Source of the DNA: Candidatus Eiseniibacteriota bacterium | GTDB taxonomy: Bacteria; Eisenbacteria; RBG-16-71-46 | Length of the DNA: 64,000 nt | Assembly: GCA_963717935.1 (NCBI GenBank) | Contig: CAVQXP010000004.1 | Coordinates: 1,664,001 to 1,728,000 of the forward strand | Direction: 5' to 3' | In this document: positions 7,644 to 63,363 of the stretch, piece by piece | Numbering within the stretch: the stretch's first letter is position 1 | Layout of the letters: each line of letters begins with the position of its first letter | Notes under the pieces: model-generated | What the model was told of the DNA's origin: nothing | The model's database searches: none | What the model saw: the letters and a program-made list of their open reading frames with translations, nothing else | Made by a program: the position numbers and the translations under genes

Positions 7644-8303
7644 GTGTTCCACTCGCTCCTGACCGTCTGGTTCGACCTCACGCTGAGGTGGGGCTACGCA
7701 GGCGTGTTCGTGCTCATGGCGATCGAGTCCACCGTGTTCCCGCTGCCGAGCGAGGTCGTGATCCCTCCGGCGGCCTACCTGGCGACGCAGGGGCACATGC
7801 ACTTCTGGGGCGTGGTGGCCGCAGCGACGCTGGGCTCGTGGGCGGGCTCGGCGCTCTCCTACTGGGTGGCCCGGGCGGTCGGGCGCCCGCTGCTGCTGCG
7901 CTACGGCCGCTACGTGTTCGTGCCCGAGAAGAAGTGGCTGCTGGCCGAGGGCTGGATCAACCGCTATTCCGCGGCCGGCATCTTCTTCGCGCGTCTGCTG
8001 CCGGTCGTCCGGCACCTGGTCTCGCTCCCCGCGGGGGCGGCGCGCATGCGCTTCGGGGTCTTCACGACCATGACGCTGCTCGGCTCCTTCGTGTGGTCCA
8101 CCGTCCTGGCCTGGTTCGGCGCGCAGGTGCTCGGCGAGGAGAAGCAGTTGCTCCAGGACCCGGACGCGCTGGTGCGCGTGCTGAAGCACAAGCTGGTCTG
8201 GTTCATGGCTGCGGCCGCGGTCCTGCTCCTGCTGTACGTCCTGGTGGACGTGATCGGGCGCCGGCTGCGGCGCGACGCCGCGGGCGCGGCGAAGACCTCC
8301 TGA
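7644..8303 (+). CDS. DedA family membrane protein
   Basis: MAIESTVFPLPSEVV, FFARLLPVVRHLVSLPAG, several TM segments. Confidence 0.9.
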   Translation: MFHSLLTVWFDLTLRWGYAGVFVLMAIESTVFPLPSEVVIPPAAYLATQGHMHFWGVVAAATLGSWAGSALSYWVARAVGRPLLLRYGRYVFVPEKKWLLAEGWINRYSAAGIFFARLLPVVRHLVSLPAGAARMRFGVFTTMTLLGSFVWSTVLAWFGAQVLGEEKQLLQDPDALVRVLKHKLVWFMAAAAVLLLLYVLVDVIGRRLRRDAAGAAKTS

Positions 8304-8382
8304 GAGGCAGGCCGGGCGCACCGCGTTCGGCCGGTGCGCGACGCTCGCCGGACTCCTGGCCCCGGGCTGGCGCGTGGCCACT

Positions 8383-8455
8383 CAGGGAGCCAGCGTGCAG
8401 CGGGGGCCGAGCAGAGGCACCATGCGCTCGGCCCCCGCTGCACGCCGGCTCCCTG
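8383..8455. repeat. 30-bp-arm hairpin with conserved core CGAGCAGAGGCACCATGCGCTCG (copy A)
   Basis: Arms 8383-8412 and 8426-8455 are complementary with 1 mismatch; loop AGAGGCACCATGC. A degenerate tandem copy of the right half lies at 8471-8512. Confidence 0.85.
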
Positions 8456-8513
8456 GCTACGATGGCAGGCCCATGCGCTCGGCCCCTGCTGTGCGCCCGC
8501 TCCCTGACTACGG

Positions 8514-10929
8514 TCAGTGGATCAGGGCGAGTCTCGAAACGAAGGTCCGGCCCTCGGTCATGAGCCTCACGAAGTAGAGTCCGGCGGGCAGCGTGCGCCC
8601 GCTCTCGTCGCATCCATCCCAGGTGAGCGTGCGCTCGCCCGCGGGCTGCGTGCTGGCGACGAGGCTCCGCACCCGGCGCCCCTGCTGGTCGTAGAGCGCG
8701 AGTTCGACGTGCGCCGCGCGCGGCAGGCCGAAGCGCAGCGTGGTCGCGCCGCGCGTGGGGTTGGGCGCGGGCGGCGCCAGGGAGACCGCGCGCGGCAGCG
8801 CGGGCCCCGGCACGTCCGTGGTGCCCGAAGGCAGCAGCGTGCTGAAGCTGCTCACGTTGCCGTGCAGGTCCAGGGCGCAGAGCTTGTAGTAGTACGGCGC
8901 GCCCGCCACGTCCACGTAGCCGGTGTTGGACTGGGCCGCCACCAGGTTCGCGGGCTCCGGCACGAAGTCGGCCGTGCTGCCGCGGTAAAGCCGGTACCCG
9001 GCCAGATCGACGGCGGGATTGACCGCCCACTGCAGGATGGCGGTGCCGTCCGTGTACTCGCCGGTGAAGGGCGCGGGTGCCGGGGGCGCGAGGTCGTCCA
9101 CCGAGTAGCCCGAGTCGGGAGCGGAGGACCACCACTGGGTGCCGCCGACCGCCCAGGCCTGGACCAGGAAGGCCGTGACCGGATTGGAGTCCGCGATCGA
9201 GTCCCCGGTGGTCGGCGCGACCATGCTGTAGGCAGGCAGGTGGTAGGCCTCCTGGGCCCCGACGTACTCCCAGTAGTAGGTCAGCATGCCGGAGGTCGTG
9301 ACGAGCAGCCGACCCGGCAGGCTCGCGGCCTCGCCCGGGTCCTGCGTGAGCGTGGCGCCGCTACGGATCGCCCGGGCCGCGAGGTTGGGGGGGGCCGAGC
9401 GGAAGACGAGGTAGTTGTCTACGTTCCGGAACAGCGGGTCCACGTCGAGCGGGCTCGCGTTCCAGGAGACCTTGACCAGGCCGCCCTCGTCGTTCGGGAT
9501 GTCGCGCACGCTGGCGATGGCCGGCTCCGCGCCGAGATAGCCCCACTCGTCCACGCGCTGGGCGTAGATGTCGGAGTTGCCGCTGCGCCCGTCGTGCCAG
9601 GTGACGATGGCCCCGCACGCGCCGTCCGAGACGAGCGTGGGGTACATCTGATCGAGGATGGCGGTGCAGAGGGCCACGCCATTGGCCGTCCACTGGACCG
9701 CGCCGGTGGCCGAGATCCGCTGGGCGTAGATGTCGGAGTTGCCGCTGCGGTAGTCGTGCCAGGTGACGATGGCCCCGCCCGTCCCGTCCGAGACGATGGT
9801 GGGGTGGTACTGGGCGGCGACGCTGGTGCAGAGGGGCACGCCGTTGGCCGTCCACTGGACCGTGCCGGTGGCCGAGATCCGCTGGGCGTAGATGTCGGAG
9901 TTGCCGCTGCGGTAGTCGTACCAGGTGACGATGGCCCCGCCCGCGCCGTCCGAGACGAGGGTGGGGTAGTACTGATCGCCGGTGGCGGTGCAGAGGGCCA
10001 CGCCGTTGGCCGTCCACTGGACCGCGCCACTGGCCGAGACCCGCTGGGCGTAGATGTCGTAGCTGGTGCCGCTGCGGTAGTCGTACCAGGTGACGATGGC
10101 CCCGCCCGCGCCGTCCGAGGCGAGGGTGGGGTAGGACTGTTCGCTGGCGGCGGTGCAGAGGGCCACGCCGTTGGCCATCCACTGGACCGTGCCGGCGGCC
10201 GAGATCCGCTGGGCGTAGATGTCCCCGTTGCCGCTGCGCTGGTCCTGCCAGGTGACGATGGCCCCACCCGCGTCGTCCGAGGCGATGGTGCAGGCGTACT
10301 GATCGCTGGTGGCGGTGCAGAGGGGCACGCCGTTGGCCGTCCACTGGACCACGCCGTTGGCCGAGATCCGCTGGGCGTAGATGTCGTAGTTGGTGCCGCT
10401 GCGGTAGTCGTACCAGGTGACGATGGCCCCGCCCGCGCCGTCCGAGACGAGGGTGGGATCGTACTGGGTGGTGACGCTGGTGCAGAGGGCCACGCCGTCG
10501 GCCGTCCACTGGACCACGCCGTTGGCCGAGATCCGCTGGGCGTAGATGTCGTAGTTGCCGCTGCGGTAGTCGTACCAGGTGACGATGGCCCCGCCCGCGC
10601 CGTCCGAGGTGATGGTGGGGCCATCCTGCTCGCCGGTGGCGGTGCAGAGGGCCACGCCGTCGGCCGTCCACTGGACCGCGCCGTTGGCCGAGATCCGCTG
10701 GGCGTAGATGTCGTAGCTGGTGCCGCTGCGGTAGTCGCGCCAGGTGACGATGGCTCCGCCCGCGCCGTCCGAGGTGATGGTGGGGCTGTACTGAGAGCCC
10801 GATGGCGGTGCAGACCGGCACGTTGACGGCCGGCTCGTGGGGCCAGGCGCTCCATGCCGGGCGCGGGGCTGCTGCAAGGGCGGTGGCAAGGAGCGCGATG
10901 GCGAGCAGGGGGACTGGGGTCCGGATCAT
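8514..10929 (-). CDS. Secreted tandem-repeat (beta-propeller-like) protein with C-terminal FlgD-Ig/T9SS-CTD-like domain (frameshift near 10800)
   Basis: Signal peptide MIRTPVPLLAIALLATALAAA in one frame. Eight SDGAGGAIVTWxDxRSGxxDIYAQR repeats, an FnIII-like segment and a PNP...LYDQQGRRVRSL...WDG...GLYFVRL tail in another frame. Confidence 0.85.
9545..10800 (-). repeat. Intragenic tandem repeat, ~8 units of 162-165 bp
   Basis: CTGGGCGTAGATGTC and CCAGGTGACGATGG recur at ~162-165 bp spacing; units encode 54-55 aa. Confidence 0.9.
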
Positions 10930-22433: not shown

Positions 22434-22567
22434 GATGCGAGGCCGTCGGGAGAAAGGGAGGGGCTCACGGCCGGACGCTAGCATGGCCCGAGGCGGCACG
22501 GGCACCGGCTCGTCCCGGCGCCGGCCGCTTCCGCCCGGCGCCGAAGCCGTCTAGACTGCGCCCGCCC

Positions 22568-60378: not shown

Positions 60379-60449
60379 GCCGGGCCTGCCGGAGCCGTGG
60401 GACGAGCAGAGGCACCATGCGCTCGCCCCACGGCTCCGGCAGGCCCGGC
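60379..60449. repeat. 29-bp-arm hairpin with the conserved core (copy B1)
   Basis: Arms 60379-60407 and 60421-60449 with 1 mismatch; loop AGAGGCACCATGC identical to copy A. Confidence 0.85.
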
Positions 60450-60452
60450 TGC

Positions 60453-60523
60453 GCGATGGCCGTGACAGCCGAAGGACGAGCGCATGGTGCCTCTGCTCGT
60501 CCTTCGGCTGTCACAGCCATCGC
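60453..60523. repeat. 29-bp-arm hairpin with the conserved core in reverse orientation (copy B2)
   Basis: Arms 60453-60481 and 60495-60523 with 1 mismatch; loop GCATGGTGCCTCT is the reverse complement of the A/B1 loop. Confidence 0.85.
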
Positions 60524-60549
60524 CCATGCACCGCCCGTGCACGGCCCGT

Positions 60550-63363
60550 CTACCGCCCGGCGGACTCCAGCGCCGTCACGCACCGCCCGCACAGCCCGGC
60601 GCGTGCGCCCTCGGCGACCACGTCCTTGCGGTGCATCCAGCAGCGCTCGCACTTCACCAGCGCCGTGGGCTGCACCGTGACCGCCAGTTCACCCGTGGGC
60701 CCGGTCGCCGTCAGCTCCACCTTCGCCACGATCAGGAACGCGGCCAACTCGCCGCCGTAGGCGCGCAGTCGCGAGATCACGGGCTCGGGGCCGGCGATCG
60801 CGATCTCGGTGGCCGCGGGCGAGGCCACCGTCTTTGCCGCACGCAGCGGCTCGATGGCGGCGTTGACCGCGTCGCGCACGCCGTGCAGGAACTCCCACTC
60901 CTCGTCGGTCGCGGGGTCGGTCGCGCCGGCCGGCCGCTCCGGCCAGCGCGCCAGGTGCACGCTCTCGCACTCGGCCAGCAGCGCGGGGTGGTGCTGCCAG
61001 ACCTCCTCGGCGGTGAAGACCAGCGCCGGAGAGATCGCGATGGTCAGGTCGTGCAGCGCCTGCCACAGGACGGTCTGCGCCGAGCGCCGTGCGGGATCGT
61101 CCGCGGCCAGCGTGTAGAGCCGGTCCTTCGAGACGTCGAGGAAGACGGCCGAGAGATCCACGGTGCACAGGCCGAGCACGGCGTCGAGGGCGCGGTGGAA
61201 CTGCAGCGCCTGCCAGGCCTCGCGCACCACGGCGAGCCGGGCGGTGAGCGCGTCGGAGAATGCGCGGTCCACCGCGGTGAGCCGTTCGCACGGCAGCGCC
61301 TGCGCGGGATCGAAGTCCCCGAGGTTGCCGAGCAGGAAGCGGAACGTGTTCCGCACCTTCCGGTAGGCGTCGGCAGTGCGCTCGAGGATCTCGTCGCTGA
61401 CGCGCACGTCGCTGCGCCAGTCGGTGGCCAGCGCCCACCAGCGCACGATCTCGGCGCCGTACTTCTTCACCACGTCGTGCGGCAGGATGATGTTGCCGAG
61501 CGACTTGTGCATGGCGCGGCCCTCACCGTCGAGCACCCAGCCGTGCGTGCACACGTCGGTGTAGGGCGCGTGGTCGGTGGCGCCGACGCCGACCATGAGC
61601 GAGGAGTTGAACCAGCCACGGTGCTGGTCGGGGCCCTCGAAGTAGACGACGCGCCCGCCCTCGCTCTCGGCCTTGCGCCAGAGCGCGTCGAGCGCGGGGT
61701 GCGTGACCCGCACGGCGCGGTGGGTCGAGCCCGAGTCGAACCACACGTCGAGGATGTCGCTCTCGCGGCGGAACGGGCCTTCGGCGCCGCACGCCGGGCA
61801 CTTGAGGCCGGGCGGCAGGAAGTCCTCGACCGGGCGCTCGTACCAGGCGTCCGAGCCGTGGGCGCGCGTCATCTCGACGGCGCGGCGCATGATGCTGGCG
61901 TCGAGGATGGGCTGGTCACAGGGCTCGCAGTAGATGGCCGGGATTCCCACGCCCCAGCTGCGCTGGCGGGACAGGCACCAGTCGGGGCGCCCGCGCACGG
62001 ACTCGCGGATGCGGTTCTGCGACGACGCCGGATCCCAGTGCACGCCCTCGATCAGCGCGAGCGCGCGCTCGCGGTGCGTGGGAGCGTCCGCGGCGGGGGC
62101 GTGGTCGATGATCATGAACCACTGGTCGGTGGCGCGGAAGATCACGGGCTGGCGGCAGCGCCAGCAGTGCGGGTAGGAGTGGACGAACGAGGAGGCGGCC
62201 AGCAGCCGGCCGCGCTCCTTGAGCCACGCGATGATGTCGGCGTTCACCTCGAGCACGCTGCGGCCCACGAAGGGCTCCGCGCCGGCGAGGAAACGGCCGG
62301 CCTCGTCTACCGGGCAGGAAACCTCGAGGCCTTCGCGCTGGCCGACGAAGAAGTCCTCCTTGCCGTGGCCGGGCGCCGTGTGCACCAGGCCGGTGCCGTC
62401 CTCCATGCTGACGAAGGGCATGCCGTCCACCACGCGCGAGTCGCGGCCCCAGGGGTTCTCGAAGATCGCGCCGACCAGTTCGCGCCCTCGCACCCTGGCG
62501 GCGACGGCGGCGTCGGTCCAGCCGACGGCCTGCGCCACCGCCTCGAGCCGCGCGGCGGCCACGACCCAGTGCCGGCCTCCGGCGGTCGCCACGGCGTAGT
62601 CGGCGTCGGGGTCCACCATCAGGCCGACGTTGGCGGGCAGGGTCCAGGGCGTGGTGGTCCAGGCGATGGCGGCCACGCCGGGCCATGCCTCGAGCGCGCC
62701 GCGCGGGTCGGAACGCAGCGGGAAGGGCACGAAGATCGAGGGCGAGGGATCGTCCGCGTACTCGATCTCGGCCTCGGCCAGCGCGGTGCGGTCGGTCGGG
62801 CACCAGTGGATCGAGCGCAGGCCGCGCTGGATGAAGCCGCGCCCGGCGAGGACGGCGAAGGCGTCGAGGATCGCCGCCTCGAAGTTGGTGTCCATCGTCA
62901 GGTAGGGTGCCTCCCACTCGCCCCAGCCGCCGAGGCGCTCGAACTCGCCGCGCTGCACGTCCACCCAGTGCGCGGCGTACTCGCGGCAGCGGTGGCGCAG
63001 GGCGATGCGTTCGGGCTTGAGCCCCTTCTCGCGGAACTCGCTGGCGACGCGGGTCTCGATCGGCATGCCGTGGTTGTCCCAGCCCGGCACGTAGGGTGCG
63101 TCCCAGCCCATGAGCGAGGCCTGGCGCACGGCGGCGTCCTTCCAGATCTTGTTGGCCGCCGTGCCCATGTGGAGGTGACCGTTGGAGTAGGGCGGGCCGT
63201 CGTGCAGCAGCCAGACCGGCGCGCCGGCGCGCTTCTCGCGCAGGCGGTGGTAGAGGTCGCGCTCCTTCCACCACGCCAGGCGCTCGGGCTCGCGCCTGAG
63301 CAGGTCGGCCTTCATGGGGAATTCCGTCCGCGGCAGGTTCAGCGTGTCGCGATAGCCGGCCAT
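60550..63363 (-). CDS. ileS: Isoleucine--tRNA ligase (type 1, C-terminal zinc finger)
   Basis: TLNLPRTEFPMKA, LHDGPPY, WTTTPWTLPAN, GTGLVHTAPGHG, DWCLSRQRSWG, DQHRGWF, KCERCW...CGRC. Confidence 0.96.
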   Translation of the reverse strand: MAGYRDTLNLPRTEFPMKADLLRREPERLAWWKERDLYHRLREKRAGAPVWLLHDGPPYSNGHLHMGTAANKIWKDAAVRQASLMGWDAPYVPGWDNHGMPIETRVASEFREKGLKPERIALRHRCREYAAHWVDVQRGEFERLGGWGEWEAPYLTMDTNFEAAILDAFAVLAGRGFIQRGLRSIHWCPTDRTALAEAEIEYADDPSPSIFVPFPLRSDPRGALEAWPGVAAIAWTTTPWTLPANVGLMVDPDADYAVATAGGRHWVVAAARLEAVAQAVGWTDAAVAARVRGRELVGAIFENPWGRDSRVVDGMPFVSMEDGTGLVHTAPGHGKEDFFVGQREGLEVSCPVDEAGRFLAGAEPFVGRSVLEVNADIIAWLKERGRLLAASSFVHSYPHCWRCRQPVIFRATDQWFMIIDHAPAADAPTHRERALALIEGVHWDPASSQNRIRESVRGRPDWCLSRQRSWGVGIPAIYCEPCDQPILDASIMRRAVEMTRAHGSDAWYERPVEDFLPPGLKCPACGAEGPFRRESDILDVWFDSGSTHRAVRVTHPALDALWRKAESEGGRVVYFEGPDQHRGWFNSSLMVGVGATDHAPYTDVCTHGWVLDGEGRAMHKSLGNIILPHDVVKKYGAEIVRWWALATDWRSDVRVSDEILERTADAYRKVRNTFRFLLGNLGDFDPAQALPCERLTAVDRAFSDALTARLAVVREAWQALQFHRALDAVLGLCTVDLSAVFLDVSKDRLYTLAADDPARRSAQTVLWQALHDLTIAISPALVFTAEEVWQHHPALLAECESVHLARWPERPAGATDPATDEEWEFLHGVRDAVNAAIEPLRAAKTVASPAATEIAIAGPEPVISRLRAYGGELAAFLIVAKVELTATGPTGELAVTVQPTALVKCERCWMHRKDVVAEGARAGLCGRCVTALESAGR

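Follow-up and report, generated by a model that had tools for sequence, protein, structure and literature searches.

Of the replicators that persist over long periods within bacterial genomes, REP and REPIN sequences have been studied best; to our knowledge, they have been described almost only from Proteobacteria and always in company with a RAYT. Integron attC sites are folded single-strand recombination sites that retain their structure although most stem positions may vary in sequence, with conservation falling on the stem ends and the extrahelical bases rather than on the apex. A general replication error pathway known from E. coli genetics is quasipalindrome correction, which proceeds by intramolecular template switching. 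As set out in the available portion of the primary report, a REPIN forms a long hairpin whose ends are invariant and whose interior is less well conserved; its length and pairing capacity are critical, and compensatory changes are common (PMC3116915). The accessible text of PMC8266576 describes group-3 TnpA-REP enzymes that act on perfect-palindrome REPs and require GTAG and also the loop sequence, which they need for binding and cleavage, and it further describes IS200/IS605 transposases as touching loop bases and stem irregularities. Here we analyze a family of long hairpins that is probably restricted to a single genus and made up of dispersed extragenic palindromes of the REP/REPIN class. 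Among the open-access papers listed in our searches on Eisenbacteria and on REP, conserved loops, compensatory change, RAYT and REPIN, those inspected gave no description of it.

The DNA comes from an uncultured bacterium of soil and sediment, and the window (the whole stretch of DNA that was analyzed, 64,000 nucleotides) contains a hairpin that belongs to a repeat family sited between genes. Direct reading bore out the earlier note's account of a hairpin with 30-bp arms, one mismatch and a core that recurs twice farther along the window; the recurrences are at 60404 on the plus strand and 60478 on the minus strand. The left arm of this hairpin, copy A, spans 30 nt (8383-8412, plus strand) and pairs with the right arm (8426-8455, plus strand, also 30 nt) with one A.C mismatch in 30 pairs. 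Between the arms lies the 13-nt apex AGAGGCACCATGC (8413-8425, plus strand), which is predicted to form a 4-nt AGAG bulge followed by 3 bp of GCA:TGC and a CCA triloop. The adjoining tail and linker, GCTACGATGGCAGGC (8456-8470, plus strand), carry GTAG on the minus strand and are common to the copy at C4:1902601 elsewhere in the genome. Next comes a decayed tandem half-copy (8471-8512, plus strand) that consists of the last 6 nt of an apex, a right arm and CTAC; compared at an offset of 51 nt with 8420-8460 it has 36 of 41 positions identical, and each of the two ends in CTAC, exactly the arrangement that had been claimed. Copies B (60379-60449, plus strand) and C (60453-60523, minus strand, inverted relative to B) each have 29-bp arms with one mismatch. 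On the 3′ side of C a further remnant half-copy can be read in the sequence (CCATGC, a decayed right arm and TCTAC; 60524-60553, plus strand); it was absent from the earlier note's list, and its tail, ...GTCTACCGCC, resembles the tail of a copy at a different locus in the related genome G004. The arms of A, B and C are mutually different and their mid-stems very different, yet all are homologous to the family.

Chance and assembly error were both addressed. The 21-mer GAGC-apex-GCTC occurs three times in the window (8409 plus, 60404 plus and 60478 minus) against an expectation of 0.03 per shuffled window, and 0 of 100 shuffles reached three. Folding of the A, B and C hairpins as single-stranded DNA gave -44.8, -43.8 and -43.6 kcal/mol, with z-scores of -10.6, -9.5 and -13.0, respectively, from 200 shuffles each. 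Contigs assembled independently from two public short-read runs span 8332-8433 and 8404-8575 with 0 differences, and so the structure of copy A is not an assembly artefact.

Copy A sits between two convergent genes. Upstream is dedA (7644-8303, plus strand), encoding a DedA/VTT-domain protein (Pfam PF09335, E = 2e-20) and stopping 79 nt ahead of the hairpin, and downstream is a repeat-protein gene from the ORF list with a FlgD-Ig C-terminal domain (Pfam PF13860; 8514-10889, minus strand), whose stop adjoins the half-copy. In three relatives (G004, G005 and G007) dedA is followed by an esterase-like, signal-peptide gene, 414 amino acids long in G005. The genome that holds the window, G000, retains only about 60 nt of the start of this gene (the 5′ remnant at 8304-8366, plus strand) and has no orthologue elsewhere, the only match being a 31%-identical paralogue. 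With the rest of the gene missing, comparison of gene order indicates that copy A marks a synteny break that would be a deletion or rearrangement junction. A search of sequencing runs returned none that contained at least half of the sampled words; the single RNA run covered only dedA of a relative, and its contig diverges at 8366. Other window sites also differ between genomes. By synteny comparison, 22504-22524 (no strand assigned) has no copy in G000 where G004 has one (locus L015), and the gap that holds B and C is 265 nt long in G000, as against 64 nt in G004. The same gap in G005 contains one copy with a decayed apex whose orientation is opposite to that of copy C.

Searching the whole genome for the core, as had been proposed, was productive. 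G000 comprises 3.02 Mb on 5 contigs at about 71% G+C and 93% completeness, and it contains 20 exact copies of the 13-mer apex, compared with 0 for the reversed control. Allowing up to 3 mismatches in the 21-mer gave 28 matches, of which 25 were accepted as members; left out were one degenerate partial unit beside C4:1902601 and two matches with 4-bp "arms" that are probably chance. Arms measure 23-33 bp in 20 of these 25 members, with a mode of 29. All of the roughly 25 copies lie outside coding-like ORFs, in convergent, tandem and divergent gaps and in both orientations. One array in G000 (C4:272532-272755, period about 85 nt) shows one full copy followed by two partial units, in which the apex and right arm are kept but the left arm is reduced to its top 11-12 bp. 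Cumulative GC skew along contig C4 has its minimum near 510 kb and its maximum near 2,050 kb, likely the origin and the terminus, with the window between them; the copies between these two points show no replication-orientation bias (7 plus, 8 minus). Five of the seven other species of the genus also contain the core. Outside the genus, 33 genomes yielded two single near-matches and the reversed-pattern control 0. A collection of species-representative genomes had the core in 30 stretches, 26 titled Candidatus Eisenbacteria and one titled "uncultured bacterium," and the remaining three come from unrelated taxa and have no inverted arms. Metagenome contigs added 83 further distinct copies, 70 of them with the exact apex, and here again arm length peaks at 29 bp (21 copies), with 52 copies reaching at least 26 bp.

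Alignment of these copies changes the picture that the first three hairpins had given. Seventy-four distinct full copies share one consensus, an element of about 71 nt in which a 29-bp arm, the 13-nt apex and a second 29-bp arm follow one another and the arm reads GCGGGgcCCGGGgg.GGcGgtGGGCGAGC before the apex and as its mirror image after it. The copies of G004 alone reveal this consensus by eye, and 43 full copies drawn from four species, when aligned without gaps, yield GCGGGGGCCGGGGG.GGCGGTGGGCGAGC, the apex and the mirror image. Thus the outer arms, once thought unrelated, align as one diverged family with a conserved base and a conserved top. Across the 74 copies the apex and the 8 bp next to it carry the most information, the base carries less and the mid-stem the least, and the apex is near-invariant in the 43 aligned copies. 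The earlier description of a conserved tip on a variable stem therefore holds in that the apex and the top 8 bp are most conserved and the mid-stem varies while staying paired, but not in its treatment of the arms, which are homologous. A CTAC/GTAG tail is present in 6 of the 74 copies, including copy A and its subfamily, so that the arms, alignable as they are, do not form a classical REP family of the kind named beforehand as the outcome that would count against the proposal; nor was a RAYT found. The copies were gathered by apex search, and orthologues with a decayed apex, one of which was seen in G005, are therefore under-sampled.

Pairing is retained across this variation. In the 43-copy alignment 94.9% of 1247 cells are paired, compared with 66.7% after shuffling of the partners (the observed value was attained in 0 of 500 shuffles) and 40.7-47.1% when the partner is slid by 1-3 columns, and both sides have changed at 24 of 29 stem pairs. 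Most copies have 0-1 mismatch per 29 bp. A scan of G000 for long hairpins that was blind to the loop returned 53 non-overlapping hairpins, 19 with the family apex and 10 with a second conserved apex, and 22 of the strongest 24 belong to these two apex families. This result indicates that the build of conserved tip and free stem is a property of the long hairpins of this genome and not an effect of the search. A permissive search for [CG]CGAGC-N3-30-GCTCG[CG] was uninformative, with 604 matches against 929 for the reversed control.

The second hairpin family has the same build, with variable paired stems of 21-35 bp, a conserved base and a conserved apex of 18-24 nt with the core GAGCGTGTCCGTACTTAGCC, for which variant apexes exist. 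Among 41 related genomes it was seen in G000 and G004 only. One G000 site, C4:1645690-1645777, lies 18 kb ahead of the window start, and others are at C4:474541, C1:60826, C4:211074, C4:123849, C4:1459214, C4:944281, C4:988521 and C4:829358; a search with 4 mismatches gave mostly noise, and only its long-arm matches were used. The 9-mer GGGCGAGCG at the junction of stem and apex is common to both families.

The unit that is copied, to new intergenic sites as well as into tandem arrays, is the entire hairpin with its arms. In G001, another species of the genus, copies that lie on at least six contigs and are frequently arrayed at a period of 92-96 nt have the identical two arm mismatches, which indicates that both arms were inherited as copied and that the stem was not rebuilt at each copying event. 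Two near-identical copies in G004, L003 and L006, differ by three uncompensated changes confined to one arm. How stems drift at a fixed site can be followed in 24 orthologous pairs, defined as copies from different genomes with both flanks aligned and anchored within 20 nt of equal hairpin distance; these pairs are not independent, as some loci recur in several of them. The hairpin has the same orientation in 15 pairs, and in 9 its interior is inverted relative to the flanks. The 15 same-orientation pairs contain 64 compensated, 47 one-sided and 9 double-unpaired changes, where some compensated counts are inflated by register shifts of 1-3 nt (L218/L158 and L200/C2:105931, for example), and their apexes differ at 5 of 195 positions. 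Older pairs differ mainly by paired changes, as two comparisons with the G000 copy at C4:272710 illustrate: in L187, where flank identity is 86.9%, 4 of 29 pairs are altered on both arms and none on a single arm, and in L212, where flank identity is 81.7%, the corresponding counts are 7 and 0. Stems change about as fast as their flanks, then, and nearly always in pairs, which fits arm-to-arm templated correction, selection favoring those copies whose stem is perfect, or a combination of the two. In base, stem top, apex, tail and linker, copy A is almost perfectly like the copy at C4:1902601, and the two differ all along a mid-stem block of about 14 nt, with compensation on both arms. Mid-stems were also considered as copies of other DNA, and this idea was rejected after their 12-mers proved unique except for generic GC-rich and family-shared words.

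Copies are gained and lost between species, recombine with one another and often have their interior inverted by exchange between the arms. The G000 copy at C4:347330 and its metagenome counterpart L171 have collinear, almost identical flanks and arms, yet the apex of one is the reverse complement of the apex of the other. For the pair C4:179818 and L041, which belongs to a bulged subfamily, the asymmetry of the internal loop is inverted along with the apex, which places the exchange point in the basal arms. For gain, loss and REARRANGEMENT, the G004 loci with usable synteny were compared with G000, which also has a copy at four of them (L002, L003/L021, L014 and L016 plus neighbors). At least five loci have a copy in G004 and none in G000, seven being named (L005, L007/8, L009, L010, L011/12, L015 and L020). 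Two "empty" G000 sites, C4:992376 and C2:145514, are deletion remnants. The filled and empty pair L227 and C2:350225 is nearly clean, with a possible 6-nt direct repeat; the other filled/empty pairs are ambiguous or remnants, and no clean target-site signature emerged from the set. In G004, one copy whose arms are not complementary is the product of recombination between two copies that stand in tandem in G000.

Taken together, we consider it fairly likely that the hairpin family is a DNA-level palindromic replicator, similar to REP and REPIN, whose bulged tip serves as a cis-signal for a putative mobilizing factor. The apex and the top of the stem would be displayed on folded single-stranded or cruciform DNA and read there by a factor that copies or maintains the element, and only lineages that keep this signal would persist. 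The complementarity of the arms may be kept by the same signal requirement, by quasipalindrome template switching between the arms, or by both. The notion that the loop is the recognized signal is consistent with the conservation of the tip and, by analogy, with the group-3 TnpA-REP precedent.

A structured RNA offers a different explanation, in which the hairpin is a bidirectional terminator, a 3′-end stabilizer or the site of an RNA-binding protein, the stem covaries and the loop makes the protein contact. Conserved unpaired bases on covarying stems are the classic signature of RNA, and at least 7 of the 25 G000 copies lie between convergent genes, often with a stop codon a few to 60 nt away. 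Hairpins of an ordinary kind also occur at such places. Relatives have a terminator-like hairpin after a related repeat-protein gene, and G000 has tetraloop hairpins at sites that lack a family copy, such as C4:986138-986197, a perfect hairpin of unique sequence with 28-bp arms and a GCAG tetraloop between convergent genes, exactly where G004 carries 1.5 family copies. Long unique hairpins thus seem to serve as gene-end structures in G000. However, about 5 family copies lie at divergent gene starts, and copies stand in both orientations relative to their neighbor genes. In the 9 of 24 orthologous pairs with an inverted interior the RNA loop would become its own complement, and a function that depends on loop sequence would not survive such inversions. 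These inversions, together with the presence of copies in all gap types and in both orientations, argue for a DNA-level element and not an RNA motif. G.U accounts for 26 of 90 non-Watson-Crick cells, near the expectation from transitions alone, so wobble pairs are not favored and show no excess among the mismatches. No U-tract follows the hairpin, tandem arrays and half-copies exist, and Rfam has no match to the family, the window's passing hits being two tRNAs and those at the hairpin being sub-threshold microRNA look-alikes. On balance, an RNA function as the basis of the family appears unlikely.

A search for a RAYT/HUH, recombinase or reverse transcriptase gene beside the copies had been proposed. 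None was found there with the exception of one IS110 transposase, which is the sole mobile-element gene in a set of 96 ORFs that lie no farther than 3 kb from 21 sites in G000. It belongs to a single-copy IS110-family insertion sequence of 1446 bp (PF01548 and PF02371; C2:234577-236022, or L130:1578-3023) that lies 5 nt from the hairpin C2:236028-236096, is missing at the same site in G005 and appears to have inserted beside the hairpin. Some IS110/IS1111 elements target REP-like palindromes, and this insertion fits that habit. Neither a working RAYT nor a catalytically complete Y1/HUH transposase was found in G000, nor was there a match to TnpB (PF07282) or to reverse transcriptase (PF00078) in this 93%-complete genome, the latter being also absent from the 96 flanking ORFs. 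The flanks of 80 metagenome loci contain no Y1-like or IS110 gene by tblastn, and of the 136 ORF clusters in those flanks, 96 of them singletons, the scan covered representatives of the 40 recurrent ones, all of which are housekeeping or lack a Pfam match.

The one PF01797 gene of G000 encodes a single-copy IS200/IS605-like protein (C4:653507-653965, or L001:1447-1905, minus strand) and adjoins lexA (L001:2044-2643). It passes the NCBIfam IS200 model (76 bits, cut-off 55) and fails the RAYT model (33 bits, cut-off 80). Each of the six genus genomes has one solid PF01797 gene, with two extra matches barely over the cut-off in G007. Alignment of the G000 protein to solved IS200/IS605 transposases places Arg at the position of the catalytic tyrosine, as in 6 of 6 genus members. 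Five of the six have an intact HUH motif; in G000 it reads RVH, the first histidine being lost. The protein looks like a domesticated, non-transposing TnpA.

This protein invites a second alternative, that the hairpins are host-domesticated sites, folded-DNA ligands with a cellular role for the tyrosine-less IS200-like protein or another host protein. The near-invariance of the apex across species, where intergenic DNA is otherwise hard to align, could also reflect such a host function, and the gene itself is single-copy and present in 37 of 41 relatives across the order (a count that includes the unpublished genome G026), with HUH retained and the tyrosine lost in the proportions given above. 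Solved relatives bind hairpin loops and stem irregularities, as described in the available text of PMC8266576, and the second hairpin family in G000 and G004 shows the same build around a different conserved apex. Yet most of the genomes that have the protein lack the hairpin family, and it occurs in genera with neither of the two; no hairpin lies within 1.5 kb of the gene in 6 of 6 genomes; the first HUH histidine is lost in G000 itself; and the presence of copies varies freely between species at orthologous sites. We regard host sites of this kind as quite improbable. The same low standing applies to the fuller scheme in which the hairpins are no parasites and a transposase, with its metal-binding HUH motif kept and its tyrosine nucleophile lost, was domesticated into a hairpin reader, its sites being bulged apexes with stems kept paired by arm-to-arm templated correction and the two apex families turning over as they co-evolve with the protein.

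A third possibility, that the apex cassette alone is mobile or recognized and the stem comes from the target or is rebuilt by fold-back (snap-back) synthesis, would suit the very different mid-stems of A, B and C, the block of about 14 nt that differs on both arms between copy A and C4:1902601, the 0-1 mismatch of most copies and the existence of half-copies, but it is very improbable in view of the single arm consensus with its conserved base and top, the two mismatches inherited on at least six G001 contigs (which also contradict, for this subfamily, the stem regeneration that the earlier note offered as one option), the uncompensated single-arm differences between L003 and L006, mid-stem 12-mers that are not copies of other genomic DNA, and arms that are homologous between species at shared loci. 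A small-ORF reading, suggested by the resemblance of the apex to a ribosome-binding site plus ATG and by real genes that start with GGAGGCACCATG, was ruled out because the downstream "peptides" differ completely between copies and because, at C4:179818, the frame relative to the following gene is not the same in G000 and G004.

Under the replicator reading that we prefer, the family displays REP/REPIN-like population behavior, with copying, compensated drift, arrays, gain and loss, in an uncultured phylum. What is new relative to REP and REPIN is the conserved signal at the hairpin tip in a setting where a competent RAYT was not found, and a testable question follows as to the protein by which Eisenbacteria would recognize a bulged hairpin tip on folded DNA. 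With more than 150 copies, whose mid-stems are free and whose interiors are frequently inverted, the family also amounts to a natural data set on the perfection of long palindromes. On the practical side, the copies break short-read assemblies and mark rearrangement points.

Comparison with the known systems defines where this family stands. Integron attC sites share the conserved structure and the free stem sequence, and differ in that our copies have no cassette arrays or integrase near them and that the conserved part is the apex. Quasipalindrome correction would copy a change in one arm to the other and so yield paired changes that cross no fitness valley, which is the pattern of the orthologous copies; unlike the hairpins it is not an element family, and it leaves the conservation of the apex unexplained. 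Neither a retron or RT-linked hairpin nor an IS200/IS605-derived, PATE-like MITE describes the family, since G000 yielded no RT gene for the former and, for the latter, no TnpB, a Y1 gene without its tyrosine and no replication-orientation bias. Group-3 REPtrons come closer. As far as the available text of PMC8266576 describes them in Stenotrophomonas maltophilia and Marinomonas, they share perfect palindromes, recognition as folded single-stranded DNA and a need for the loop, and the subfamily that includes copy A adds the GTAG tail. In contrast, their stems of 8 bp and loops of 3-4 nt lie beside tnpA-REP according to the same text, whereas here stems of 29 bp carry a bulged 13-nt apex and the only Y1-like gene lacks the tyrosine and fails the RAYT model. 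The dispersed extragenic palindrome of classical REP and BIME is present as well, with the GTAG foot limited to the small subfamily and no cognate RAYT found. The nearest relation is to REPIN/REP with RAYT, for which the accessible part of PMC3116915, on Pseudomonas fluorescens SBW25, describes dispersed extragenic long hairpins in tens of copies per genome, clusters and arrays, and vertical inheritance within a lineage, all of which have their counterpart in this family. Our copies are fewer and have no flanking or cognate RAYT, and the rarity of GTAG (6 of 74), the missing RAYT and the signal at the tip together lead us to place the family as a variant of REP/REPIN and not as a member of the RAYT-associated family. 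The long hairpin with a compensated variable region is common to both. What separates them is the placement of conservation, for a REPIN, as far as that source goes, conserves the two REP units at its basal ends and varies its middle and tip, and the hairpins described here conserve the tip and the top of the stem.
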